Source of the DNA: a virus
Taxonomy: Duplodnaviria > Heunggongvirae > Uroviricota > Caudoviricetes
Length of the DNA stretch: 64,000 nt
Direction: 5' to 3' (one strand)
Virus record (IMG/VR): IMGVR_UViG_3300018475_000004
Below the pieces are notes generated by a model. It was given only the letters and a program-made list of their open reading frames with translations. It was not told where the DNA came from and made no database searches. Positions 5,769-64,000 of the stretch are shown piece after piece (the stretch's first letter is position 1; each line of letters opens with the position of its first letter). Both the position numbers and the translations under genes were made by a program.

Positions 5769-7367
5769 TTAGCTCATAGATTCTTTATTTTGGATAGTCT
5801 TATCGCTCTTTTGATTGTCTGGTTTCTCCGGTCGGCCCGCAGACTTCTCAGAAGACTATCCTCCTGATTTAGTTTGAGTTTTGTTAGTTTGAGTTTGATT
5901 AGAATTGCCCTTTAAGTCTTGCATATTCATAGTAGAAGACATCAGCGGAGGAATCATAACTTCACTCAAATGTAAAACTTCATTTTCAAAGTAAGCAGTA
6001 TTCAAGATAGCACTCTGAGAATGGCCTAAAGCAATTTGAGGCAACATCTTAGAATATCCTAACTGAACACATTCTTTATACATCTTAGACAACTCTTTGT
6101 AGTTATACTGAGTAGTCTCAAGCATATAGAATCTAAAATTGTATTTCTTTTTATTCGCACCAAAATTCTGTGTTAGTCTATCAAAGAAAACACCAAATTG
6201 TAGCAACAAGGTGCGGACCGCACCTTCATCATTTAGCACAGATAAATTCATTGCTAAATTACTATCAGAGTTAAATAAACTTTGCGGAACACCAAAAGCA
6301 TTATATACACTACGCTCAACTTTCATCAAGTCATCTTGAGTAGTAGTAGTATTCTTATCAGACATATCAATACTTTCAATATCAGCGAAAGTAGTCAATA
6401 CGTCAACACCAACCGCACGCTTCAACATCTAAACAGCATTATTATGAATATCTCTTGCTTCATCGACGTCAAAAATCAAATCACCATTTTTATCTAATGG
6501 GAGTTTCTGAACTACAATTTTCAATAACTTTTGCATTTGCTTTCTACGATCCAAATCCTGAGCCGCATCCAAATCCAAAATAAGAGGAATCGCATTGATA
6601 AATAATGGTAAATCGACACCGCCGAATCCACCATTACTAAAACTAAATTTCACGGTTTTCTCTGGGTCCAACAAATACCAACCACTATCTCTATCCCATG
6701 GACTTTCAGGAAGTAACTTACCACTCTTGTAAGCAGCATATCCCTTCTTGAACTCTTCTGGGAACAAATTCAATACTTTCATTCTGTATCCAGTATCTGG
6801 GAACATAACATCAAAAAACTTCATATTGAACTCAACAGTTGGTAAATTATTCAAACTAAAACGAGAACGGCAATAATTTACAGGCAACTCTTGAATAATA
6901 ATTCCTTTTGAGGTGGGAACGATATATCCATAATAAGCGCCATTCTTGATAACGCCAAGAGCCATATCACCGCAAACTTTTTTGACATATGAATTATCTA
7001 AGAAGTTCAAGACCTTATGGAAATCTCCAACAATCTTTTCTTCTTTGATACTTTCATCGTATACTTCTGGAACAACATACCAATCATAACGATACATAGT
7101 AGCGAAATAATTACATACTCTTTGATAGATACCGCTGGTCTTATAGAAGTAATTAGAAATCTCTCTTAACTTCTCAACATCATTATCCGCAAGCGCACGA
7201 TAAATAACGCCTTTATTGATGATGTTTCTAGTTTCCTTTTGAATTGAACCTAAATTCAAAACGGCATCTTCAAGTGTTTTAGTTCCAATTTTAATTTTAC
7301 CATAGGTAGTTCCACCCATGTCAAAACCTTTGGCACGAATTTCTTCTTGTCTAGTTAACTTATCCAA
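5769..7367 (-). CDS. Portal protein (code 15, 532 aa)
   Basis: ORFs 6429-7367 and 5856-6428 are in frame, separated by TAG 6429-6431; TAG 5856-5858 read through to AGRPEKPDNQKSDKTIQNKESMS-TAA; position terminase-portal-protease-capsid. Confidence 0.8.
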
Positions 7368-7749: not shown

Positions 7750-9489
7750 TTAATTATAAAACGCCCAATCAGCAGCGTTAAATCTCTTTTTCTTCTTCTT
7801 TTTATCTTCTTCTTGTTTTATATAATACAAACCATATTCAAACGCAGAAAACTTATCCTTCCTAATTCCACGATTTGCTTGTTTCAAAATGATATTTATG
7901 CCTTCATTTTCTTCACGCAAATTCATCATTTCCTCTTTCAATATGGAAGTTAGGGTAAATGGTTGAAGGTATTCTGCCCTTTCCTCAGGCTTCATTTTCT
8001 AACCTTTTGCGGTTCCCAGTAATTTTTCTCTTGCTGTTCTTTCATCAATCAAGAATTTTACCTTACCGGCCGCAAGTTGGCTTTGTGCGTTTGCGTGACA
8101 CTCTGTATTGATTGGCGCATTTGCCTTGATAATATACATAGCATCATATTCAGTATTAGCTGTTCTATACTTTTTATAATAACCTTCATCGTCGTTTTGA
8201 ACGCCAAAGTCAGGATAGAAGTCTCCATTTTCATCATTCTAAGATTTAATCATATAATCAATTAGACCCAAACCAACACCATTACCGTCGATTACGAGAG
8301 TTCTAGCTTTATACTTATAGAACAGTTTTTTCAGCTTAATTGCTTGATCTTCAAAGTGTTCATCAGCCATTGTATAAATATTTACCAAAGACTTGATAGC
8401 AGGGCCTTGCGCCTGCGGCGTCACCTTGAATACACAAACAACAGAATCACATCCCTTACGACCTACGTCGACTGATAGCACATAATAAGCGCCGGCCGCA
8501 GACCTTCCGGAATGTTCATATTCAGGTTGTAATAATTTTCTATTACGAGTAAAATGTTCTCCATTGAAGAATGCATCTTCAACAGTACCAGACCACTTAG
8601 ACTCATACTCACGCTCGAAAGAGGCTTCATTATAAGTACCTTCATTCTTCTGGTCGGTAATGAATGTTTTACTCTGTAATCCCATTGCCACTGGCGTTCT
8701 CCAAGTACCACCAAGCACAATACAGCGATCGGGCTGAGTGACCATACGAACCAAGAAACCAATCAATCTATCATATGGATAAGTTCCTTTATATCCAGCA
8801 GTTGTAATATAAATCTGAGATTTATTCAAAGGTTCTTTTTCATTAGTAGTACCATCTTTCGCACGACGAGAGATAGCCATAACAGGGATAATAACTTCGC
8901 GAAGGATTTGGTCATCAATACCAACACATTCCTCCATTACGCCGCCATGACGACGCTGACCACGCGTAGATTCACGGGCCGCAAGGTTATCCAGAACAGA
9001 ACCATTCTTAAATACATATCGGACTTTATCTTTACCAGTTAAAGTCTTACCTCGTCCCCAGTCAATTTCTCTTTCAAAGCTGGGAATCAATTTACAAATT
9101 TCTTCTACTTTACTTTGTAGAATAGAAGCACCCTGCTCCTTACCACCAGAAGTGACAAACAAGTGAGCATTGGGATATAAAATACAACGGCACATCAATG
9201 CCATAACAGTCAAGAAAGATTTAGAATATGCACGAGGAAAAACCGCATACACATACTAATATCTCATAACGCAACGAAGGAAAACTCTTTGATAGAAATA
9301 AAAACAGAATTCTCCATCTTTTACTTCGGTACTAGTTCCACGTACCATAAAGTCAACGAATAAATCAGGATATTCTCTCCAAAAGGCTATGTACTTTCGT
9401 ATTGTAGGCATAACAGCCTCAACACGTTCCGGAGAAAGACCAATCTTTCTCCGGGATGTTGATAAATCAAGTAAATCTTGTAAAGCCAT
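7750..9489 (-). CDS. Terminase large subunit (code 15, 579 aa)
   Basis: One frame through TAGs at 9256-9258, 8239-8241, 7999-8001; FPRAYSKSF Walker-A-like, VMEEC Walker-B, SVDVGRKG RNase-H-like nuclease and DKFSAFEYG motifs. Confidence 0.88.
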
Positions 9490-10732: not shown

Positions 10733-11785
10733 TTACACGCTTTTGGCCTTCGCATTTCTACAGCATTTGCAAATGCTATAAAAACCATCTCGGCTTGTCT
10801 TATTTTTACTAAAGTATTTATTGTGAGCTAATTTGACTTGCCCGCAACGACTGCACTTTTTGTATTTGCCCTTCATTTCATTCATGAAGTACCAATTTAA
10901 GAGTCTATCTTCCGCCTCGGACGCAATGATCTTTGGAATTTTATTACGCCATAAACTTGAGATATATTCCAAACTATGCTTGATCCCAAACTCCATTTGG
11001 ATTTTTTCTTGAATATCAATATTTTGTAATCCATCAATTTTATACTCAACAATTCGTTCATACAATGGATAATTTTTCAAAGCAGCATCCGCAACTCTGT
11101 CAAAGTCATCCATCAAGTACCATAAATCTTTTTCAAACTCTCCCCAACTTTCTTGTTTACATAAGGAGTAGTTACAAAGAATTGCTGAGACTACTTTTGG
11201 ATTACATAAAGAAACACCCTCTGGAACAATATAGCCTTCGTCATCAAACCAGAAATCATCATCTAAAGGAATATCGTGTCTTGAACGAGTGATTTTAGTT
11301 GGTACAATTGGTTTACGATAAGCGTTCTTCAAAACATATTGATCTTTTCGCAATTCAATAATTGTACTCTTAATAATAAATGCTTCTCGCCCGGAGGCAC
11401 TCTTTAATTTTGTTTCCCACATTTTGATGGCGTCGCGCAATTGCTACATACCGGGTATTTCTTCTACATCTTGTTTAGTTATCATTACTTTTGGCTGGAA
11501 AATCGTATTCTTATTATTAGTTATCATATTATAAATGCCGTCTTCGCCATTCTCTAGCTGGGAAACAAGACCTTCATAAGAAGTTTCTCGCTTATTGACT
11601 GTAGCCATACGGTTATCAGTTAATAGTTTGCGCTCCTTTTTCTCTTGTTTCTCCATACAGAGAACTAGATAATCAGCTAAAGTTTCTAGATACGCCTCTG
11701 AGGGATTAGGGGTTTCAGCTAGAATTTTTTCAACCAATTCTCTTCTCTCTTCTGGAGATTCTAAAGTATAATCTAATTTCAACAT
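10733..11785 (-). CDS. Putative transcription regulator with helical domain and C-terminal Zn finger (code 15, 350 aa)
   Basis: ORFs 11444-11785 and 10733-11440 join through TAG 11444-11446 (EEIPGM*QLRDAIK); C-terminal CSRC...CKCC. Confidence 0.6.
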
Positions 11786-21475: not shown

Positions 21476-22246
21476 TACGAAAGCCACCCCATTTTTGGGG
21501 TGGCTTTTTCGGCGCGGCGCCCACGGTTGATGGGCGCCGAAATTTTATTATACCACACCGCCAGCCAATTTGTCAAGAGGAAAATTGCACAAATAATAAA
21601 TAATTATTTTTCCCGATTTTGTGTATTTTGCCAATTGCAATCTGGGGGCAGATGTGGTATAGTATTGGTGTCAAGGGGAGGGAACGCCTCGGGAGTTGGG
21701 AAACCCACGCTAGGCGTCGAACTGTTGGCAGAGGCTGTGTACGACCCAACCTTCCGGCACGCAACTTTCTTGAAGAAACTTCAAGAAACCCCTTGACAAA
21801 TCCCCCAAGTTGTGATACAATGTAAGAGAAGTCAAGAGGTTAGCCGTGGTCGGAGGCGGTAGGGCTTGCGGAGCAAGTGACCACAAGATGACCGAACAGA
21901 AGGAAATCTGAAAAAAAACCTCTTGACAAACTCCCCAAGATGTGTTATAATAAGGGTACAAAAGAGGGAAGCATGGCAGAAGTCGTTGAGACAAGACCCA
22001 CGAGAGTCGTGTCAGACCATGACGACAAAGTCCTCGACCGCACGGTCGCTCCGTTGTGCGGAATATAAATGTGAACCAATCCCGAGGCTGTATTAGGGAC
22101 TAGGTGGAGTGAAAGCCAAAAAAAAATTCAAAAAACCTCTTGACAACTGGCTCAAGATGTGATACAATAAGAATGTAAGGAGGAACACCTCTTACAGATA
22201 AATCAAATTTGGGTTGCGACCTACCGCAAGATTGGAGATCGATACT

Positions 22247-37958: not shown

Positions 37959-39133
37959 GGTCATATGAATTGACTTTTCACGAACTGCAGATCATCATGG
38001 GTGACTTCTCCAAGCTCGTCGATGAAAAAGTTCTGCAGAAGATGCCATATAATATGTGGCGACAAATGACACATCCCTCCGAGCCCGTCAAGGATGTTCT
38101 CGTTGAGTGGGACAATTGGGGTGTCGATATTATCCTAGGTAATACGGTTCATCACTTTGAGGCCGACGACAATAGTTTCGGACAATTTATGATGGATGAT
38201 TACTGTATGGACTGGGAAAGATACGAAGATGGATACTACTCCTCCTATTACCCTGCCCCCAACTGGCGCGACGAAGTAATAAGGGGCGCGTTTGAAGGAG
38301 ACATGAAAAAGGCTTTGAGTGAAGCCAAGGTCGGTATCATTGCTTCCGACCACACCGAGCCCACTGTGGAAATCATGGGCTTAAACACCAAGGCGGACAT
38401 TTCCGCCGTCAATCACATTGAAGAGCGTGTCGCCGCTCTGGAAAGTAAAATCAATACAAACGAAGAAGATAAAAAGGAGAATACTACTATGAAGGGTTTC
38501 AATTTTGATTTCGGTCCTGTCAATCCCGCTGTTGTGAGAATGTCCATGTATGGCCTGGCCATCAAGAATAAGACCGGCACTTTCGTGTCCTACGATGCCA
38601 AAAATGATGAGATCGTCGACGTTGACGTTCTGAACTTCGACGGCGCCAAGTACATCTGGAAGATGCCTGTCGCTATCAAGGACATCGCTATCGGCGATAC
38701 CATTGTCCACCAGAATGTTCCCATGTTCGTTGTGGGCATTTCCGAAGATAAGAAGGCTCTGTTTGCGGTCGACCCTGTGGTCGGTGAGCGCAAGGAGATC
38801 ATGCTGACCCGTTCCCCCTTCGGTTTCCACTTCGCCACCAAGGTTATCAACCTGCTGGGCGGTATGTTCAGCGGTGAGGCAACTGCCGAGAACCCCTTTG
38901 GTAATATGTGGATGTTGATGGCCCTGGGCGATGAGAACAACGACATGAAGGAGCTGCTGCCCTTCATGGTGATGGCTAACGGCGGCATGAATACCATGAA
39001 CCCCATGATGTTCTACTGTCTGATGGGCAAGGAGAACGTTGATCCCATGGCTCTGGCCATGATGATGGGCGCCTTCAATCCCGCACCCGCACATGAGTGC
39101 AACTGCGGTGGTAACTGCGGCAACCATAACTAA
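37952..39133 (+). CDS. Hypothetical phage protein (possible internal start at MKGFNFDFG)
   Basis: 393 aa; Met-rich C-terminus; internal AAGGAG RBS near 38475. Confidence 0.65.
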   Translation: MVRSYELTFHELQIIMGDFSKLVDEKVLQKMPYNMWRQMTHPSEPVKDVLVEWDNWGVDIILGNTVHHFEADDNSFGQFMMDDYCMDWERYEDGYYSSYYPAPNWRDEVIRGAFEGDMKKALSEAKVGIIASDHTEPTVEIMGLNTKADISAVNHIEERVAALESKINTNEEDKKENTTMKGFNFDFGPVNPAVVRMSMYGLAIKNKTGTFVSYDAKNDEIVDVDVLNFDGAKYIWKMPVAIKDIAIGDTIVHQNVPMFVVGISEDKKALFAVDPVVGERKEIMLTRSPFGFHFATKVINLLGGMFSGEATAENPFGNMWMLMALGDENNDMKELLPFMVMANGGMNTMNPMMFYCLMGKENVDPMALAMMMGAFNPAPAHECNCGGNCGNHN

Positions 39134-39233
39134 TCATAAGGCTCCTCTGCTTGGAGCAGAGGAGCTTACTTGATTTTTTATAAAATATTTTGTATAATAT
39201 ATATACAAGATATGAAAAAGAGGTAAAAAGCAA

Positions 39234-40829
39234 ATGAGTTTGTATGATAAGTTGCCAACTGTTGATGTTGACACGCTGTGGAAATACCTGGATCTTTATA
39301 GCGGAGGAAGCCCTCTCCCCCGTGAGGAAATGAACTATTTCCTTCGTTATTGGGATACTGCTAAACAGCCTTTCTACGAGGCTTTTGGTGAAAACTTTAT
39401 CATCAAAAAGGCTGTTTGTTTTGATAAGCCTTGTGAAGACATGGAAGAAGAGATGGAAGACACTCTGCGCTATGGCTGTCCTGTTGCTGCTCTCTTCCGA
39501 AATGAATTCAAGAATCGTATAAGGACAGTATTTCCTCCCTATACCGATGAATATTACAACATGAAGCGTTTCGTAGATGACTACGCGATGCTGGTAAAAA
39601 ATATTTATGACGGACCTGCTATTACCATTCCGGCAATTTTTACCGTGACTGGTCGCCCCTTGCAGGTCAACCAGAACTGTAAGGCCAGTAAGATGCTTGG
39701 TAAGATTGCCGAAGCTCTTAACTGCGCTGAGCACTATGAGGCTTTCCGACAGGCTCACTCCCAGGTTCTGAACCAGAAGCAGATTAGAGGTAATCTGTGT
39801 TTGAGTATTCATCCTCTGGACTTTTTGACCATGAGCGATAATGCTTCTAACTGGGGTTCCTGTATGAGCTGGATGGATGAGCCGGGCGATTATCGACTGG
39901 GAACCATCGAAATGATGAACTCTCCCTGCGTTGTTATCGCCTATGTGGAAGCTAAGGAACCTATGTCTTTGGAATATAACGGAGATACCTGGAACAACAA
40001 GCGTTGGCGCCAGTTGTATGTGGTTTCTCCGGAAATGATTCTTGGTAATCGCCAATATCCTTATAACAGCGACGTCCTCCAGGGAACTACTATCAAGTGG
40101 TTGCGGGAGCTGATGACTCCTTGTAAGCCTTATGGCCCCTACGCAGAAGAGACTTGCCAGATTGAGAATTTCAAGAATAATGTCTTTGGCGGTAACCGGG
40201 TTTATGTAAGTCTGAATATGGATTATATGTATAATGATATTTATAATCAGCGTTTGGCTTATGTGGCACCTGAGTATTTCGCCAAGAATGATCGGTTCTA
40301 TCTCAACGTGTCTGGACCCGCAATCTGCACTGGATGCGGAGAGGTTATTGAGCCAAAAGAAGTTGATCCTTGCGACGTGCGTTGCCGCCGTTGTAATGGT
40401 TACTTCTATTGCTCTCACTGCGGCGAATGGTCCGGTGGAGAGTGCTATACTGGCGGAGATGGAAGACTCTATTGTGAGTATTGCTACTACAATGAGTTGG
40501 AAAGATGTGAGTGCTGTGATGATCACACCAGTGAATCTGATATGCGCCACATCTACATCCAAATGCCAGGAGTAGAAACATTCGATAATTGGAGATACTA
40601 TATCTCCATCTGTAACTACTGCTATCAGCATGGTTGCTATAAGAAAGAATATGGCGAGGTTCTTCTCGTAAAGGACGAATACGGTATCGAGCGTCTTGCG
40701 TTTGACCTTCGCAATATTGACGAAGATGCTCTGGGTGTTGACCTGGATTATCGAACCGTAGATTTGTTGGTGGCAATCCGCAATGCTTCTACGGAAGAAG
40801 AGCGGGATGCTCTAATCGAAAAACTCTAA
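39234..40829 (+). CDS. Conserved phage protein with C-terminal CxxC repeats, paralog 1
   Basis: LCLSIHPLDFLTMSDN...W.SCM motif shared with 44450-45856. Confidence 0.7.
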   Translation: MSLYDKLPTVDVDTLWKYLDLYSGGSPLPREEMNYFLRYWDTAKQPFYEAFGENFIIKKAVCFDKPCEDMEEEMEDTLRYGCPVAALFRNEFKNRIRTVFPPYTDEYYNMKRFVDDYAMLVKNIYDGPAITIPAIFTVTGRPLQVNQNCKASKMLGKIAEALNCAEHYEAFRQAHSQVLNQKQIRGNLCLSIHPLDFLTMSDNASNWGSCMSWMDEPGDYRLGTIEMMNSPCVVIAYVEAKEPMSLEYNGDTWNNKRWRQLYVVSPEMILGNRQYPYNSDVLQGTTIKWLRELMTPCKPYGPYAEETCQIENFKNNVFGGNRVYVSLNMDYMYNDIYNQRLAYVAPEYFAKNDRFYLNVSGPAICTGCGEVIEPKEVDPCDVRCRRCNGYFYCSHCGEWSGGECYTGGDGRLYCEYCYYNELERCECCDDHTSESDMRHIYIQMPGVETFDNWRYYISICNYCYQHGCYKKEYGEVLLVKDEYGIERLAFDLRNIDEDALGVDLDYRTVDLLVAIRNASTEEERDALIEKL

Positions 40830-47345: not shown

Positions 47346-47420
47346 AGGGTGATCGTTCAACGGCTAGGACTACAGTCTCCAAAACTGTGTATCTAGGTTC
47401 GAATCCTAGTCGCCCTGCCA
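47346..47420 (+). tRNA. tRNA-Trp(CCA)
   Basis: Cloverleaf, ACAGT-CTCCAAA-ACTGT, G73, CCA. Confidence 0.9.
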
Positions 47421-48929: not shown

Positions 48930-48999
48930 GTTCCTTTAGTTTAAGTAGGGAGAATGGCTTGAGGGCAAGAGATGTGGGTTCGAGTCCCATAAGGAACAC
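48930..48999 (+). pseudogene. tRNA-like element with degenerate anticodon arm
   Basis: GTTCCTT/AAGGAAC acceptor, D and T arms present; anticodon stem collapsed; no CCA. Confidence 0.65.
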
Positions 49000-49013: not shown

Positions 49014-49084
49014 GTCCCATTAGTTTAATGGCAGAACGCACGAAGTAATAGGTGTGATACTGGTTCGAATCCAGTATGGGAAAT
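49014..49084 (+). pseudogene. tRNA-like element with 10-nt anticodon loop
   Basis: TCCCAT/ATGGGA acceptor, ACTGG-TTCGAAT-CCAGT T arm, CGCAC-GAAGTAATAG-GTGTG; no CCA. Confidence 0.6.
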
Positions 49085-50208: not shown

Positions 50209-50483
50209 GATGGTAAGCCACCAGGAGAAGGAAAACCAGAAAAAACTGGAAATACCGGGGCGAAACCTTTGCCTAAACTGGGCTAAGAAATACAGGTTGC
50301 GTGCGGCCGCAGCACGAGTAAGGGACGTAAAGCGGTGGTTTAAGAGTGTTACCTATAACCAACCGGGCGAGAAAAACAAATGAGCAGGCCCGTTAAAATG
50401 ATAGTCGCGAATATCATCTGCAATCCTGGGCTGGTCGAAAGACCCTGGTCCACCCAAAGGCGCTGGCAACCGGCGCCACATAT

Positions 50484-56604: not shown

Positions 56605-56680
56605 TGGGGATTGGCGTAATGGTAGCGCGCAGGACTTTGACTCCTGGTCTGTAGGGGTTCGACTCCCTTATCCCCAGCCA
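56605..56680 (+). tRNA. tRNA-Gln(TTG)
   Basis: U1-A72, G73, CCA. Confidence 0.9.
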
Positions 56681-56708
56681 TAAGCCTTTTTATATTCATT
56701 CAACATCT

Positions 56709-56772
56709 AAGACTCTAACAGCAATTTATTTTGGAACAACCTTTTAACTTGTCTACCAGAAACTGAGTCTTG
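56709..56772 (+). ncRNA. ACAGCAA cassette 7, cargo Lys(TTT)-like anticodon stem-loop
   Basis: AAGACTC/GAGTCTT stem; ACAAC-CTTTTAA-CTTGT. Confidence 0.8.
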
Positions 56773-56783
56773 AACATTTATAT

Positions 56784-56857
56784 TCCCGCTTAGTCTAATG
56801 GCAAAACGGCAGACTCTGACTCTGCATTTGGTGGTTCGAGTCCATCAGCGGGAGCCA
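56784..56857 (+). tRNA. tRNA-Gln(CTG)
   Basis: U1-A72, G73, CCA. Confidence 0.9.
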
Positions 56858-57279: not shown

Positions 57280-57965
57280 GCACTCCTGACAGAAACCCTC
57301 CGGTGAATAACCCTGGTGAGTGCGATTTCGACTAATGACTGTCATGAACCTTGATAAGTTTGCAACTCGGTGAAGAACGAATACCATCGTGCCGAGATCC
57401 TCATCCTGCCTGTGGGTACCAGGAGTCCGAAAAGCAATCTTACCGACGATAGCCGGTAATAGGTAGATTCTCTTGTGGTGACATAAGAGAGCCGCCTCCA
57501 AAGGGAGGGCCTGGATGGAGAGGAGTGCAAAGATAACCGCAATCAAAAATACCGTCTTATCGCTTCCGCAATAGACGCCCCCGTGGGGAATAAGCCTTGT
57601 TAGGGATTAGCTGGTGACTGTTCCAGACCAAGGTACACCAATAAGGAAGTCTGCGTTGATGTCGGAGTAATCCGGCTATAAGGTAAGGTCAGGGTACGAG
57701 TAGCTCTATCGCAACGACGAGAAGAAAGATTGGGCTGTTTAGATAGTATGGTTTAATAGACTTAAACAATTCTGAATGGCGAGTGAAAGTTAGAGGCAAT
57801 CAGTCCTCTGCGGGATAGGGTAGGAAAGGCCGCCTCTGGTGTGTCAGAACTACTGGGGCAAGAAGCTTAGGGTCGCTCCCGAAGGCTCAGACTTGTCTCC
57901 CCGGTGATTGAATATGGTTGAAGGTTATAGGGAGTATGACGAAGGTCAGCAAACTTATCAGGTTT
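57280..57965 (+). ncRNA. Probable GOLLD RNA (boundaries approximate)
   Basis: About 690 nt ORF-free structured region between tRNAs; 3' blocks GTAGCTCTATCGCAA, GAATGGCGAGTGAAAGTT..AATCAGTC, GGGTCGCTCCC..GGCTCAGAC, GAATA..GAAGGT..AGTATG..AAGGTC resemble the GOLLD 3' core as I recall it. Confidence 0.68.
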
Positions 57966-57973
57966 ATAAATTT

Positions 57974-59918: not shown

Positions 59919-59946
59919 TAAGTTTTATATAGAAAGGATGATTCCA

Positions 59947-60726
59947 ATGCAGGGTGCTATATTTTCAGGTTATGATGCCCGAGATTACAAATTGGTTTAC
60001 ACCGCTTCTGGCGTAGAATTCCCCGCTGAATTTGAGCTGAAGATGCGTGGTATTAAGAATTAGGGTGCGGTCGGCAGCTGTGTCGCTCACTCTTTAGCTA
60101 GTATTATCGAATACTACAACTATACTCAAACTGGTGATCCCAGTGAAATGAGTGTAGGCTATATTTACGGAAACCGTAATACTTCTGACTATAAAGAGTC
60201 AGGTATGATTATGCGTGATGCTCTTGAAGTTGTTCGTAAATATGGCGACGTCAAATATGATTTATTCCCTTACAATCGTGAAGTCCCCGAAATGATTGAT
60301 CTTTATGAGCGTCAGGGTAAGAAATTATTCAAGCAAGGTTATCCCAACCGCATTAGTCAGTATGCTCGTGTTACCAGTTTCAATGCAGTAAAGGCTGCTT
60401 TGATGGCTGGCAATCCTGTTCTAATGGCTATGTGCTGGTTCGCTGATATGGAAGTTGATGATGAAGGTGTTCTACGCACTGAATTTAAAGGCTACGATGG
60501 CGGACATTGTATGTTCATCTATGGCTGGGATGAGCGTGGCTGGAAGGTCCAGAACTCTTGGGGTGAAGATTGGGGAAATCATGGATGTATGATTATTCCT
60601 TACGATATGCCCATCGAAGAAGTTTGGACTTTGACCGATAATGTAATTGAGAATACTAAGACTAAGAAACCCCATAAGTGTATCGCAAAAGTATGTAATG
60701 CTATTTCTAAAATTTTCAAAAAGTAA
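59947..60726 (+). CDS. C1 (papain-family) cysteine peptidase (code 15, 259 aa)
   Basis: IKN*GAVGSCVAHS (TAG 60061-60063 at oxyanion Gln), GGHCM, VQNSWG motifs. Confidence 0.92.
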
Positions 60727-61667: not shown

Positions 61668-61849
61668 TGGGACGCCGCAAGAAAAGACCTGAACTATCTT
61701 ATCACTTCTGGCTTGATACAGATGGATGCTGGTTCTGCAAGAAGAAAAATGCCTGCGGTGGATGTAAAGTATTGAAGCGCTACATCCATGAAAAAGAGAG
61801 AAGTCAGAGAAAAATTTCTCGTGACGAGAAGCGTTGGCTTGACTTTTGA
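61667..61849 (+). CDS. Small basic Cys-cluster protein
   Basis: 60 aa, CWFC..CGGC, TAATG coupling. Confidence 0.6.
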   Translation: MGRRKKRPELSYHFWLDTDGCWFCKKKNACGGCKVLKRYIHEKERSQRKISRDEKRWLDF

Positions 61850-61875
61850 AATTTTTTTTAGTATAATAAATACAT

Positions 61876-62012
61876 AAGGCACATACAGCAATACATTTTT
61901 CAAAATTTAAGGCTGTCAACCCGTAGGCTGCAGGTTCGAGTCCTGTCCCCGTCTCCACGGCGGGGTAGCTCAAGTGGTAGAGCAACGTAAAACGATTTTG
62001 TGATGTGTCTTG
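61876..62012 (+). ncRNA. ACAGCAA cassette 10 carrying circularly permuted tRNA-Asp(GTC)
   Basis: AAGGCAC/GTGTCTT stem; 3' part 61911-61957 ending CCA precedes 5' part 61959-61987. Confidence 0.88.
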
Positions 62013-62023
62013 ATTTATTATAC

Positions 62024-62098
62024 TGCGGTGTCGTTCAAAGGTCAGGACAGGGGTCTCTAAAACCTCGGATGTGAGTTCGATTCTCACCGCCGCTGCCA
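62024..62098 (+). tRNA. Amber suppressor tRNA (anticodon CTA), probably Gln
   Basis: GGGGT-CTCTAAA-ACCTC arm, U1:U72 mismatch, G2-C71, G73, CCA. Confidence 0.9.
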
Positions 62099-62166
62099 AA
62101 GAGATCGTAATTGATTTTTATAAAAAAAAATGATATAATATATACATAAGAGATAAGGAAATAAAA

Positions 62167-62261
62167 AAGGCTCTTACAGCAAGTCTTAAACTTGGATAAT
62201 AAAATTTTTTCTGTACAAAATTTTTAGTAGGTTCGAGTCCTACAAACTATCAAGAGCCTTG
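62167..62261 (+). ncRNA. ACAGCAA cassette 11, cargo D-armless tRNA-like element (GTA loop plus T arm)
   Basis: AAGGCTC/GAGCCTT stem; CTGTACA loop; GTAGG-TTCGAGT-CCTAC. Confidence 0.75.
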
Positions 62262-63492: not shown

Positions 63493-64000
63493 ACCGGTTC
63501 TGCTTTTGCGCACGGGAGAAATTCCTCAGAACCGCCTTTTGGGACGAGTAAGGTTTTACAGTAGGGACTAAGTGGCAATCGGGTGTCTAGAAATTAGACC
63601 CGACCTAAGCCCTAAGATTAGCCTTTCTCGTTGTTTTTATCATATTTGATTTTTATAAAAAAATATGATATAATATTTATGTAAGATAAAGGAAGAAACA
63701 AATTACTGATTTCTTTACTGCTTACCGGCACTTAGCCATCCGACTGCCGTAAAATAGAGATGACCAAGCAATAAGTATTGCCGTTGTGAGTGAGGACGAC
63801 CGAGAAACTCACCAAGAGTAAACTTGACAATAAGAAAGCAAAGGGTAGCGCGATATTGTGCTAGAGTGCAGAAGGACAGTCCCGGCATAAAGCTAATGTT
63901 GGGTGACAGGCCGCTTGAGGTTGCACTGGAGAGGCGTCCGATTATGTGCTTATTGTAAAAATCCAAGAGGTTCAGCTGGCTTCTTGATTTATCCTTTTGG

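Follow-up and report, generated by a model that had tools for sequence, protein, structure and literature searches.

Background

Reassignment of stop codons is established for gut phages, and clades of recoded gut phages have been described (Borges et al., bioRxiv 10.1101/2021.08.26.457843). The phage phAss-1 ('Phassvirus'), which is filed in GenBank as 'Caudoviricetes code 15 clade', contains TAG in 41 open reading frames (ORFs) and carries three tRNA-SUP-CTA genes and no aminoacyl-tRNA synthetase of its own; its authors assign glutamine (Gln) to TAG and presume a Clostridia host (PMC10607447). How such suppressors are charged without a phage synthetase is a point raised in the papers that describe these phages. 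It is also known that an amber tRNA-Trp is charged with Gln, U35 being the key anticodon contact of glutaminyl-tRNA synthetase (GlnRS), and that altering pairs 1-72 and 3-70 makes an amber tRNA-Ser a Gln acceptor (PMC9976931). Here we describe the amber suppressor tRNA(CUA) gene at positions 62024-62098 (+ strand) of a 64,000-nucleotide stretch (the window) of a tailed-phage genome, IMG/VR virus record IMGVR_UViG_3300018475_000004. The gene joins the known tRNA-SUP-CTA genes of the code-15 (TAG to Gln) phages. Our best explanation as a whole, to which we give a probability of about 0.7, is that it specifies a Gln-inserting amber suppressor that would be charged directly by the GlnRS of the host.

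Structure and conservation of the suppressor tRNA

Both ARAGORN and the Rfam tRNA model (51.5 bits; gathering score 29) recognize a tRNA of 75 nucleotides. Its anticodon CTA, at position 34 of the tRNA (62057-62059, + strand), reads UAG. In the acceptor stem, as drawn by ARAGORN, U1 stands opposite U72 and is followed by G2:C71, C3:G70, G4:C69, G5:C68, U6-G67 and G7:C66; the 1:72 position is the sole non-standard pair flagged by the Rfam model. The 3' end consists of the discriminator G73 and an encoded CCA. U8 and C9 lie between the acceptor and D stems, and the D arm, TC-GTTC-AAAGGTCA-GGAC, has the stem GUUC/GGAC with G10 and an 8-nucleotide loop containing GG. The anticodon arm combines a five-pair stem that includes U31:A39 with the loop CU-CUA-AA, which places A at positions 36, 37 and 38 (A36-A37-A38), and the rest of the molecule shows a 4-nucleotide variable loop, the T loop UUCGAUU, U11:A24 and a missing nucleotide 47. 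An earlier inspection of the letters of this DNA (the sequence-only reading) had listed the amber anticodon, U1/U72, G2:C71, G73, the D arm and the loop, and every one of these was recovered with ARAGORN and Rfam. The gene is a canonical, genuine tRNA and not a chance match.

ARAGORN gave the gene the label tRNA-Pyl, which follows from the anticodon alone and which we rejected. The hallmarks of tRNA-Pyl that we tested were a six-pair anticodon stem, a three-base variable loop, a short D loop without GG and one base between the acceptor and D stems. Here the anticodon stem has five pairs, two bases occupy positions 8-9, the D loop has 8 nucleotides with GG, the T loop is TTCGATT, and TAG aligns with Gln and not with Lys-like positions.

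Homologues were collected by pattern scans (D arm plus CUA loop) of IMG/VR and of JGI/ENA metagenomes, which gave 75 copies representing 37 distinct sequences. As the search pattern fixes both the D arm and the anticodon loop, the constancy of G10, U35, A37 and A38 in this set is not evidence. Twenty-five of the 37 distinct sequences encode CCA and form the group of the window's tRNA. The other 12, an environmental group, have no encoded CCA, and 11 of them have a paired U1:A72 or A1:U72; the exception, L175, has U1 opposite U72.

Within the window's group the 1:72 position is unpaired in 25 of 25 sequences (U-C in 23, U-U in 2), 2:71 is G:C in all 25 and G73 is invariant, as are the pattern-fixed G10, A37 and A38. 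The other 20 stem pairs are all kept, with 31:39 kept in 24 of 25 (U:A 18, A:U 6, A-C 1). Position 3:70 is G:C in 15 sequences, C:G in 8 and A:U in 2, 4:69 and 5:68 swap jointly between G:C and C:G, and 6:67 takes five pair types. Double changes are seen at 3:70, 4:69, 5:68, 6:67, 7:66, 27:43, 28:42, 29:41 and 49:65-52:62; 30:40 varies to G-U only, 53:61 is invariant and 11:24 is U:A in every sequence. The cloverleaf is thereby shown to be under selection, and we regard the gene as a genuine selected tRNA because its 25 homologues preserve the stems through compensatory changes. The cloverleaf rests on this covariation because the minimum-free-energy fold of the suppressor alone is undistinctive (z = -0.24), as is usual for tRNAs.

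The same design extends beyond the search pattern. It is seen, with A3:U70 and U6:A67, in a kin contig whose terminase is 88% identical, and the suppressor of phAss-1, UGGGGAG...CUCCCCC-G-CCA, has U1 opposite C72 and a different D arm, and adjoins a tRNA-Leu(UAA) gene as in the window. As a background we sampled 84 distinct CUA tRNAs of the five-base-variable-loop class from IMG/VR; most of these other viral CUA tRNAs have G1:C72 with A73, and a clean 1:72 mismatch occurs in 1 of the 84. Judged from these comparisons, the unpaired first position appears to be a selected, family-specific trait. A GGAC D stem is also found in other viral CUA tRNAs, which have U1:A72 (L037, L039, L045, L046) or U1 opposite U72 (L042), and U1 together with G73 looks like a wider theme because these tRNAs also begin with U1. 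The sequence-only reading had argued from a weak 1:72 pair in the one tRNA, an argument that is strengthened by the conservation of the mismatch in all 25 homologues. A conserved unpaired 1:72 together with G2:C71 and G73 seems not to have been described in the literature.

Bacterial initiator tRNA is characterized by a 1x72 mismatch, and the acceptor stem in the window (xGCGG...CCGCx), by our reading of the sequence, is presumably similar to the one in E. coli tRNA-fMet. We nevertheless find it barely credible that the 1:72 mismatch marks an initiator-like tRNA with which translation would begin at UAG. The three G:C pairs at 29-31:39-41 are absent, and 31:39 is never G:C in the 25 homologues; 11:24 is of the elongator type, U:A, where initiators have purine11:pyrimidine24; the discriminator is G and not A; most homologues have G3:C70, unlike the initiator; and the TAG codons stand inside genes at Gln positions.

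Two further observations concern the surroundings of the tRNA. The five bases 5' of the suppressor, as seen in 62012-62023 and in the 12 nucleotides upstream of 22 homologues, are nearly always N-A-T-A-Y (GATAT, TATAC and others), with a pyrimidine at position -1 in 19 of the 22, and N-A-T-A-Y may be a processing context. Several kin carry a second CUA tRNA beside the first (L002 8313-8409, L004 2265-2361, L052 1283-1358 and, in phAss-1, L195 1389-1479). One type of second tRNA has a tRNA-Gln-like UGGGG...CCCCA-G acceptor and an extra arm of 20-odd nucleotides, another has G1-U72, and there is no such second gene in the window's record.

The residue inserted at TAG

Protein database entries of the close terminases already translate TAG as Q, which would make a protein comparison circular, and we used a codon alignment of the DNA instead. 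It covers 19 kin loci with terminase identities of 49-89%. At the 128 sites with TAG in at least one of the kin and a sense codon in the window, the residue is Q in 63 cases (CAA 48, CAG 15), E in 13, K in 10 and W in 3; over all aligned sites the share of Q is 3.6%. When the kin are limited to those of at least 80% identity, Q is found at 19 of 28 informative sites and K at 1. A BLOSUM62-based likelihood places Q first, ahead of the next residue by 20 nats for the close kin and by 76 nats for all kin.

A gene about 2 kb upstream of the suppressor provides a clean internal control, in that a catalytic-site Gln is written as TAG. This gene (59938-60726, + strand) encodes a papain-family (C1) peptidase (Pfam Peptidase_C1, 4.9e-16) and would be a client of the suppressor. 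Its one TAG (60061-60063) specifies residue 42, the X of ...GIKN-X-GAVGSC..., with the catalytic Cys six residues further on; in the HMMER alignment this residue falls on the Gln of 'vknQgqcgsc' in cathepsin K and likewise on a Gln in 3ois. The TAG thus stands at the invariant oxyanion-hole Gln of the family. The peptidase gene used as a query found eight loci at 55-64% identity, and 0 of the 8 had a CUA tRNA within 4 kb.

It is very probable that TAG is read as glutamine because CAA and CAG alternate with it in the kin, the likelihood ranks Q first and a TAG stands at the position of the oxyanion-hole Gln. The proposal of the sequence-only reading that the tRNA is an amber suppressor inserting Gln is upheld by the same three lines of evidence, with W far behind in the ranking.

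Two other residues were weighed against Gln. Partial reading of TAG as Lys would follow from misreading of the tRNA by lysyl-tRNA synthetase (LysRS), for which U35 is also a determinant. Among the residues opposite TAG, K ranks second or third in frequency, and in distant standard-code homologues it is level with Q; mislysylation of amber suppressors is documented (PMC1483225). We nonetheless hold this to be very unlikely, since the close kin have Q at 19 sites and K at 1, K falls behind Q by 26 to 80 nats, the alternation of CAA and CAG is the pattern of synonymous change while K and E are the usual substitutes of Q, and the catalytic-site TAG needs Gln.

The second is Trp, or a mixture of Trp and Gln as reported for E. 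coli Su7, which would result from a tRNA-Trp derivative still charged wholly or partly by tryptophanyl-tRNA synthetase (TrpRS). The bacterial Trp identity set consists of G73, A1-U72, G2-C71 to G5-C68, A9, C34, C35 and A36 (PMC9976931). The suppressor shares G73, G2:C71, G4:C69, G5:C68, C34 and A36 with this set, its D arm and variable loop are like those of the phage's own tRNA-Trp, and further phage tRNA-Trp genes carry this D arm. On the other hand, A1-U72, A9 and C35 are all missing from the suppressor, which has U1, C9 and U35. Trp is aligned at only 3 of the 128 TAG sites and lies behind Q by 55 nats (close kin) and 259 nats (all kin), the peptidase TAG stands at an invariant Gln, and a comparison of three standard-code phages opposite the window's own TAG codons (18 sites) excluded W (-31.6). 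Taken together these results make charging by TrpRS highly improbable.

Ancestry of the suppressor

All identities given here are structure-registered, those within the window with the anticodon masked. The sequence-only reading had found the D arm and anticodon loop of the suppressor more like the window's tRNA-Trp than like its two tRNA-Gln genes and had derived the suppressor from tRNA-Trp. Within the window the first statement holds: the suppressor matches the tRNA-Trp(CCA) gene at 47346-47420 (+ strand, ARAGORN), with which it has the D arm TC-GTTC-AA.GG..A-GGAC and a 4-nucleotide variable loop in common, at 42 of 69 positions (61%), and it matches the two sense tRNA-Gln genes (56605-56857, + strand, ARAGORN; UUG at 56605-56680 and CUG at 56784-56857) at 36 of 71 and 35 of 69 positions (51%). 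Against a wider set of 215 tRNAs from phages and two Clostridia metagenome-assembled genomes (MAGs) the greater likeness to Trp does not hold, as the nearest outsiders are two phage tRNA-Gln (0.67 and 0.65), followed by three tRNA-Trp (0.64, 0.64 and 0.61). Three phage tRNA-Trp genes, the window's own and two more, have the suppressor-type D arm.

The phylogeny is neutral on the second statement. In a maximum-likelihood tree of 53 tRNAs (Trp, Gln, Glu, CUA and outgroup) the suppressor family has a support of 88/96 and lies in an unsupported polytomy with two Trp tRNAs and a Glu clade; the alignment has too few columns, and neither Trp nor Gln forms a clade, so that no approximately unbiased (AU) test of ancestry would be meaningful. 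Outside the family, Gln and Trp tRNAs are equally near. Descent of the suppressor from tRNA-Trp is a possible reading of these sequences. The Trp-like anticodon arm may be convergent, given that A37, A38 and U31:A39 are expected of any tRNA with A36. Other features lean towards Gln: most homologues begin with the eleven bases TGGGGTGTCGT, as does a tRNA-Gln(UUG) from an Acutalibacteraceae MAG, and the D arm of an Alicyclobacillus-phage tRNA-Gln, TC-GTCT-AAAGGTA-GGAC, differs from that of the suppressor at two stem positions and one loop base. The window's tRNA-Trp is itself unlike the tRNA-Trp of the closer kin phages and of two Clostridia MAGs. It may be a paralogue of the suppressor lineage with either direction of descent, and it could equally derive from that lineage because of its unlikeness to the tRNA-Trp of the closer kin.

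Charging by the host

The bacterial Gln identity set consists of G73, U1-A72, G2-C71, G3-C70, G10, U34, U35, G36, A37 and U38 (PMC9976931). Among these elements G73, G2:C71, G10, U35 and A37 are present in the window's tRNA, and of these only G73 and G2:C71 have an invariance that is independent of the search pattern. For U1-A72 the U1 is present, and position 72 is U here and C or U in the homologues, which makes the pair absent rather than weak. G3:C70, G36 and U38 are replaced by C3:G70, A36 and A38; the loss of G36 comes of necessity with the amber anticodon.

GlnRS must break the first base pair of its tRNA to fold the 3' end into the active site, as is known from the GlnRS complex, and a tRNA without a first pair should be favoured because of this. 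From E. coli genetics an absent 1:72 pair should favour GlnRS, though it is not the native element. In the explanation that we prefer, the gene would be transcribed within the array of tRNA and non-coding RNA genes, probably from the promoter at 61839-61867, and matured by host RNase P, addition of CCA being unnecessary. The host GlnRS would charge the product directly, reading U35, G10, G2:C71, G73 and A37 as in tRNA-Gln, while the permanently unpaired U1-Y72 would spare the enzyme the breaking of the first pair and so offset the loss of G36. A36-A37-A38 with U31:A39 would supply the loop context of UNN-reading tRNAs, including a probable modification of A37. The result would be a functional elongator tRNA whose CUA pairs with UAG and inserts Gln, allowing the terminase, the portal, the C1 peptidase and about half of the long ORFs to be translated in a host that reads TAG as stop. 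Direct charging by the host GlnRS, taken as a claim by itself, seems to us somewhat better than an even bet.

The genomes of candidate hosts bear on the choice between this route and the main rival, the indirect route of bacteria that lack GlnRS, in which Glu would be attached by a non-discriminating host glutamyl-tRNA synthetase (GluRS) and then amidated on the tRNA by GatCAB. Contigs of kin phages are scattered over MAGs of widely differing taxa (Acutalibacteraceae, Bacteroidales, Mollicutes, Treponema, Bacilli and Lachnospiraceae). A GlnRS-type C-terminal domain, but no GatB, occurs in the MAGs with the two closest kin contigs and in a MAG of Lachnospiraceae. In two MAGs with contigs of less close kin, GatB is present and the GlnRS domain absent, and of 61 genomes sampled from one candidate host order, 22 lack a GlnRS-type domain. 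The tRNA itself also gives evidence on both sides. The suppressor is like tRNA-Glu in U11:A24 and in the missing nucleotide 47, and it keeps U1 of the first pair that amidotransferases inspect (PMC9976931). Amidotransferases and GluRS2, however, are reported to rely on U1-A72, where position 72 is never A in the 25 homologues, and the main GluRS element in B. subtilis is a modified U34, where the suppressor has C34 (PMC9976931). We consider the indirect route unlikely.

Several points weigh against Gln insertion with direct charging by the host GlnRS. The window's copy has C3:G70 instead of the G3:C70 determinant and A38 instead of U38. A 1:72 mismatch disfavours binding of EF-Tu in the E. coli initiator tRNA. 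Distant standard-code homologues do not separate Q from K, with K ahead by 1.4 nats over 18 sites. A GlnRS-type domain was found in only 39 of the 61 sampled genomes, because of which the GatCAB route keeps a place among the explanations; the binning of phage contigs in MAGs is weak evidence of the host, and two candidate host MAGs cannot be told apart by their mean identity to the tRNAs of the window (0.66 versus 0.63). Contigs from metatranscriptomes cover the tRNA at a word depth of 5-8, and contigs cannot show transcription, ends or co-transcription. Finally, the virus record is judged about 67% complete, and a second suppressor, as in the kin, or an aminoacyl-tRNA synthetase could sit in the missing third.

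We put forward only tentatively, as somewhat less than an even chance, the further proposal that the unpaired U1-Y72 with invariant G2:C71 and G73 is a natural adaptation that pre-opens the acceptor end for the host GlnRS and offsets the lost G36. If this is true, phage evolution has repeatedly fixed a trick known from mischarging suppressor mutants of E. coli, and these tRNAs could be unusually efficient, host-independent Gln amber suppressors. To the question of charging without a phage synthetase the family would offer a concrete answer: keep the acceptor and D-stem elements of Gln and remove the first base pair.

The phage genome and its recoded genes

The source of the window is a 138.8-kb IMG/VR record, of which the window forms part; the full size of the phage is about 200 kb. 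ARAGORN finds 36 tRNA genes in the window and there are 39 in the whole record, among which the gene at 62024-62098 is the sole CUA tRNA; a scan of the whole record for additional CUA anticodon stem-loops gave no second candidate. A search of the same record, at its 67% completeness, found no GluRS/GlnRS catalytic domain, aminoacyl-tRNA synthetase, class-I release factor or TROVE/Ro gene. A single-base difference was seen at 22179 between the window and the genome record.

The structural module consists of minus-strand genes at 1-11.8 kb and includes further clients of the suppressor. The large terminase (7750-9489, - strand; PHROG terminase match and full-length homologues) has three in-frame TAG codons and the portal protein (5769-7367, - strand; phrog_2739 portal, 2.9e-83) has two, both counted on the translations; a sigma-like protein (10733-11785, - strand) has one. 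Over the ORFs of at least 150 amino acids when read through, 57 of 114 contain TAG. Terminases of Enterococcus phages VRE9_4 and H1, Geobacillus virus E3 and phage phAss-1 share 45-46% identity with that of the window (46% for phAss-1), and the neighbouring genes in close kin encode YonG, YonD, YonB, YomW, YomV and YomU domains, which belong to SPbeta-type virion genes. The virus is a TAG-recoded, SPbeta-like gut phage related to phAss-1 (the "code 15 clade"), and the finding supports the code 15 annotation for this roughly 200-kb phage group. Strong promoters of the TTGACA/TATAAT type in the tRNA array fit with a Bacillota host.

A region of about 28 kb (approximately 12000-40000) has a higher G+C content (0.43-0.49), and its ORFs of 100-500 amino acids coincide on the two strands, as do 39234-40829 (+) and 39075-40631 (-). 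Clean long genes do not emerge there under any single stop-codon reassignment, and eight ORFs tested had no Pfam match. Its counterpart in the kin loci holds only small called genes.

The transcription unit and neighbouring elements

A consensus scan predicts a sigma-70-like promoter, TTGACT-17-TATAAT (11/12), at 61839-61867 (+ strand). It is followed at 61903-62010 (+ strand) by a tRNA-like element with its T arm, acceptor and D arm in permuted order, which ends 13 nucleotides before the suppressor. The sequence-only reading had called the element a permuted Asp cassette that shares a promoter with the suppressor. It matches the Rfam model YrlA (Y RNA-like) over its full length at 40.8 bits (E 9e-8), short of the gathering score of 69, with a good fit in the T arm, acceptor and D arm and a poor one in the Ro-binding stem. 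No terminator-like site was found on the + strand between the promoter and 62098, and a single transcript from 61839-61867 that would cover the tRNA-like element and the suppressor is plausible. Kin phages do not share this arrangement: their suppressors come after a protein gene or after other tRNAs. The next sigma-70-like promoter predicted by the scan, TTGATT-17-TATAAT with TG (62111-62139, + strand), lies 13 nucleotides after the tRNA and would be the start of the following unit.

Other elements were noted in and near the array. An ACAGCAA motif recurs shortly after promoter-like sites and tRNAs (61878-61900 and 62170-62185, and downstream of tRNAs in the kin loci L001 and L002). A full-length ROOL RNA (57342-57967, + strand; Rfam RF03087, 323 bits) lies inside the tRNA array, a DUF3800-XI RNA match is found at 50427-50462 (+ strand; 47.6 bits, gathering score 37.8), and the Rfam tRNA model matches two sites without an ARAGORN call, 48930-48998 and 49014-49083 (+ strand; 38.6 and 40.8 bits). 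A partial OLE RNA match at 63543-63632 (+ strand) covers positions 436-595 of 616 and scores 52.9 bits (gathering score 50). The bin 63493-63600 has word depths of 58703, 68527 and 8785 in contigs of three metatranscriptome runs, whereas an unlabelled run gives 21 and adjacent bins about 50; the depth may reflect a highly abundant RNA or a conserved segment common to other organisms.

Comparison with known systems

The closest systems are phAss-1 and the other code-15 phages. As in these, a phage CUA tRNA lies in a large tRNA array, in-frame TAG codons occur in the terminase, the portal and other late genes, and charging by a host enzyme is assumed since no phage aminoacyl-tRNA synthetase was found. 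The suppressor also resembles that of phAss-1 in its U1-Y72 mismatch, G2:C71, G73 and CCA, and in adjoining a tRNA-Leu(UAA). The number of suppressors differs (one in the window's record, three in phAss-1, two in closer kin), and so does the genome size, about 200 kb here and 136 kb in phAss-1. The conserved 1:72 mismatch and the mixed Gln and Trp features seem to have gone unremarked in the phAss-1 paper (PMC10607447).

E. coli Su7 has the same CUA in a CU-CUA-AA loop, the same G73 and G2:C71, and is charged mainly with Gln since GlnRS reads U35 (PMC9976931). Unlike the phage family, which has U1 opposite C or U, Su7 keeps A1:U72; its descent from tRNA-Trp is documented, whereas the phage suppressor is equally near to Gln and Trp tRNAs; and it is a laboratory mutant, whereas the phage suppressor is a natural gene conserved across many phages. 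With bacterial tRNA-Gln and its amber form supE the suppressor shares U1, G2:C71, G10, G73, U35, A37 and a four-nucleotide variable loop. It differs from them in that position 72 is C or U and not A, so that the first pair is absent and not merely weak, in having A38 and U31:A39 where C/U38 and A31:U39 are usual, and, in the window's copy, in C3:G70. The laboratory mischarging amber suppressors (tRNA-Ser with changed 1-72 and 3-70, and tRNA-fMet with CUA) are like the phage tRNA in that GlnRS readily accepts an amber anticodon combined with a disrupted or changed first pair (PMC9976931). They are E. coli tRNA mutants obtained by engineering or selection, whereas in the phage family the solution appears to have been fixed by natural selection.

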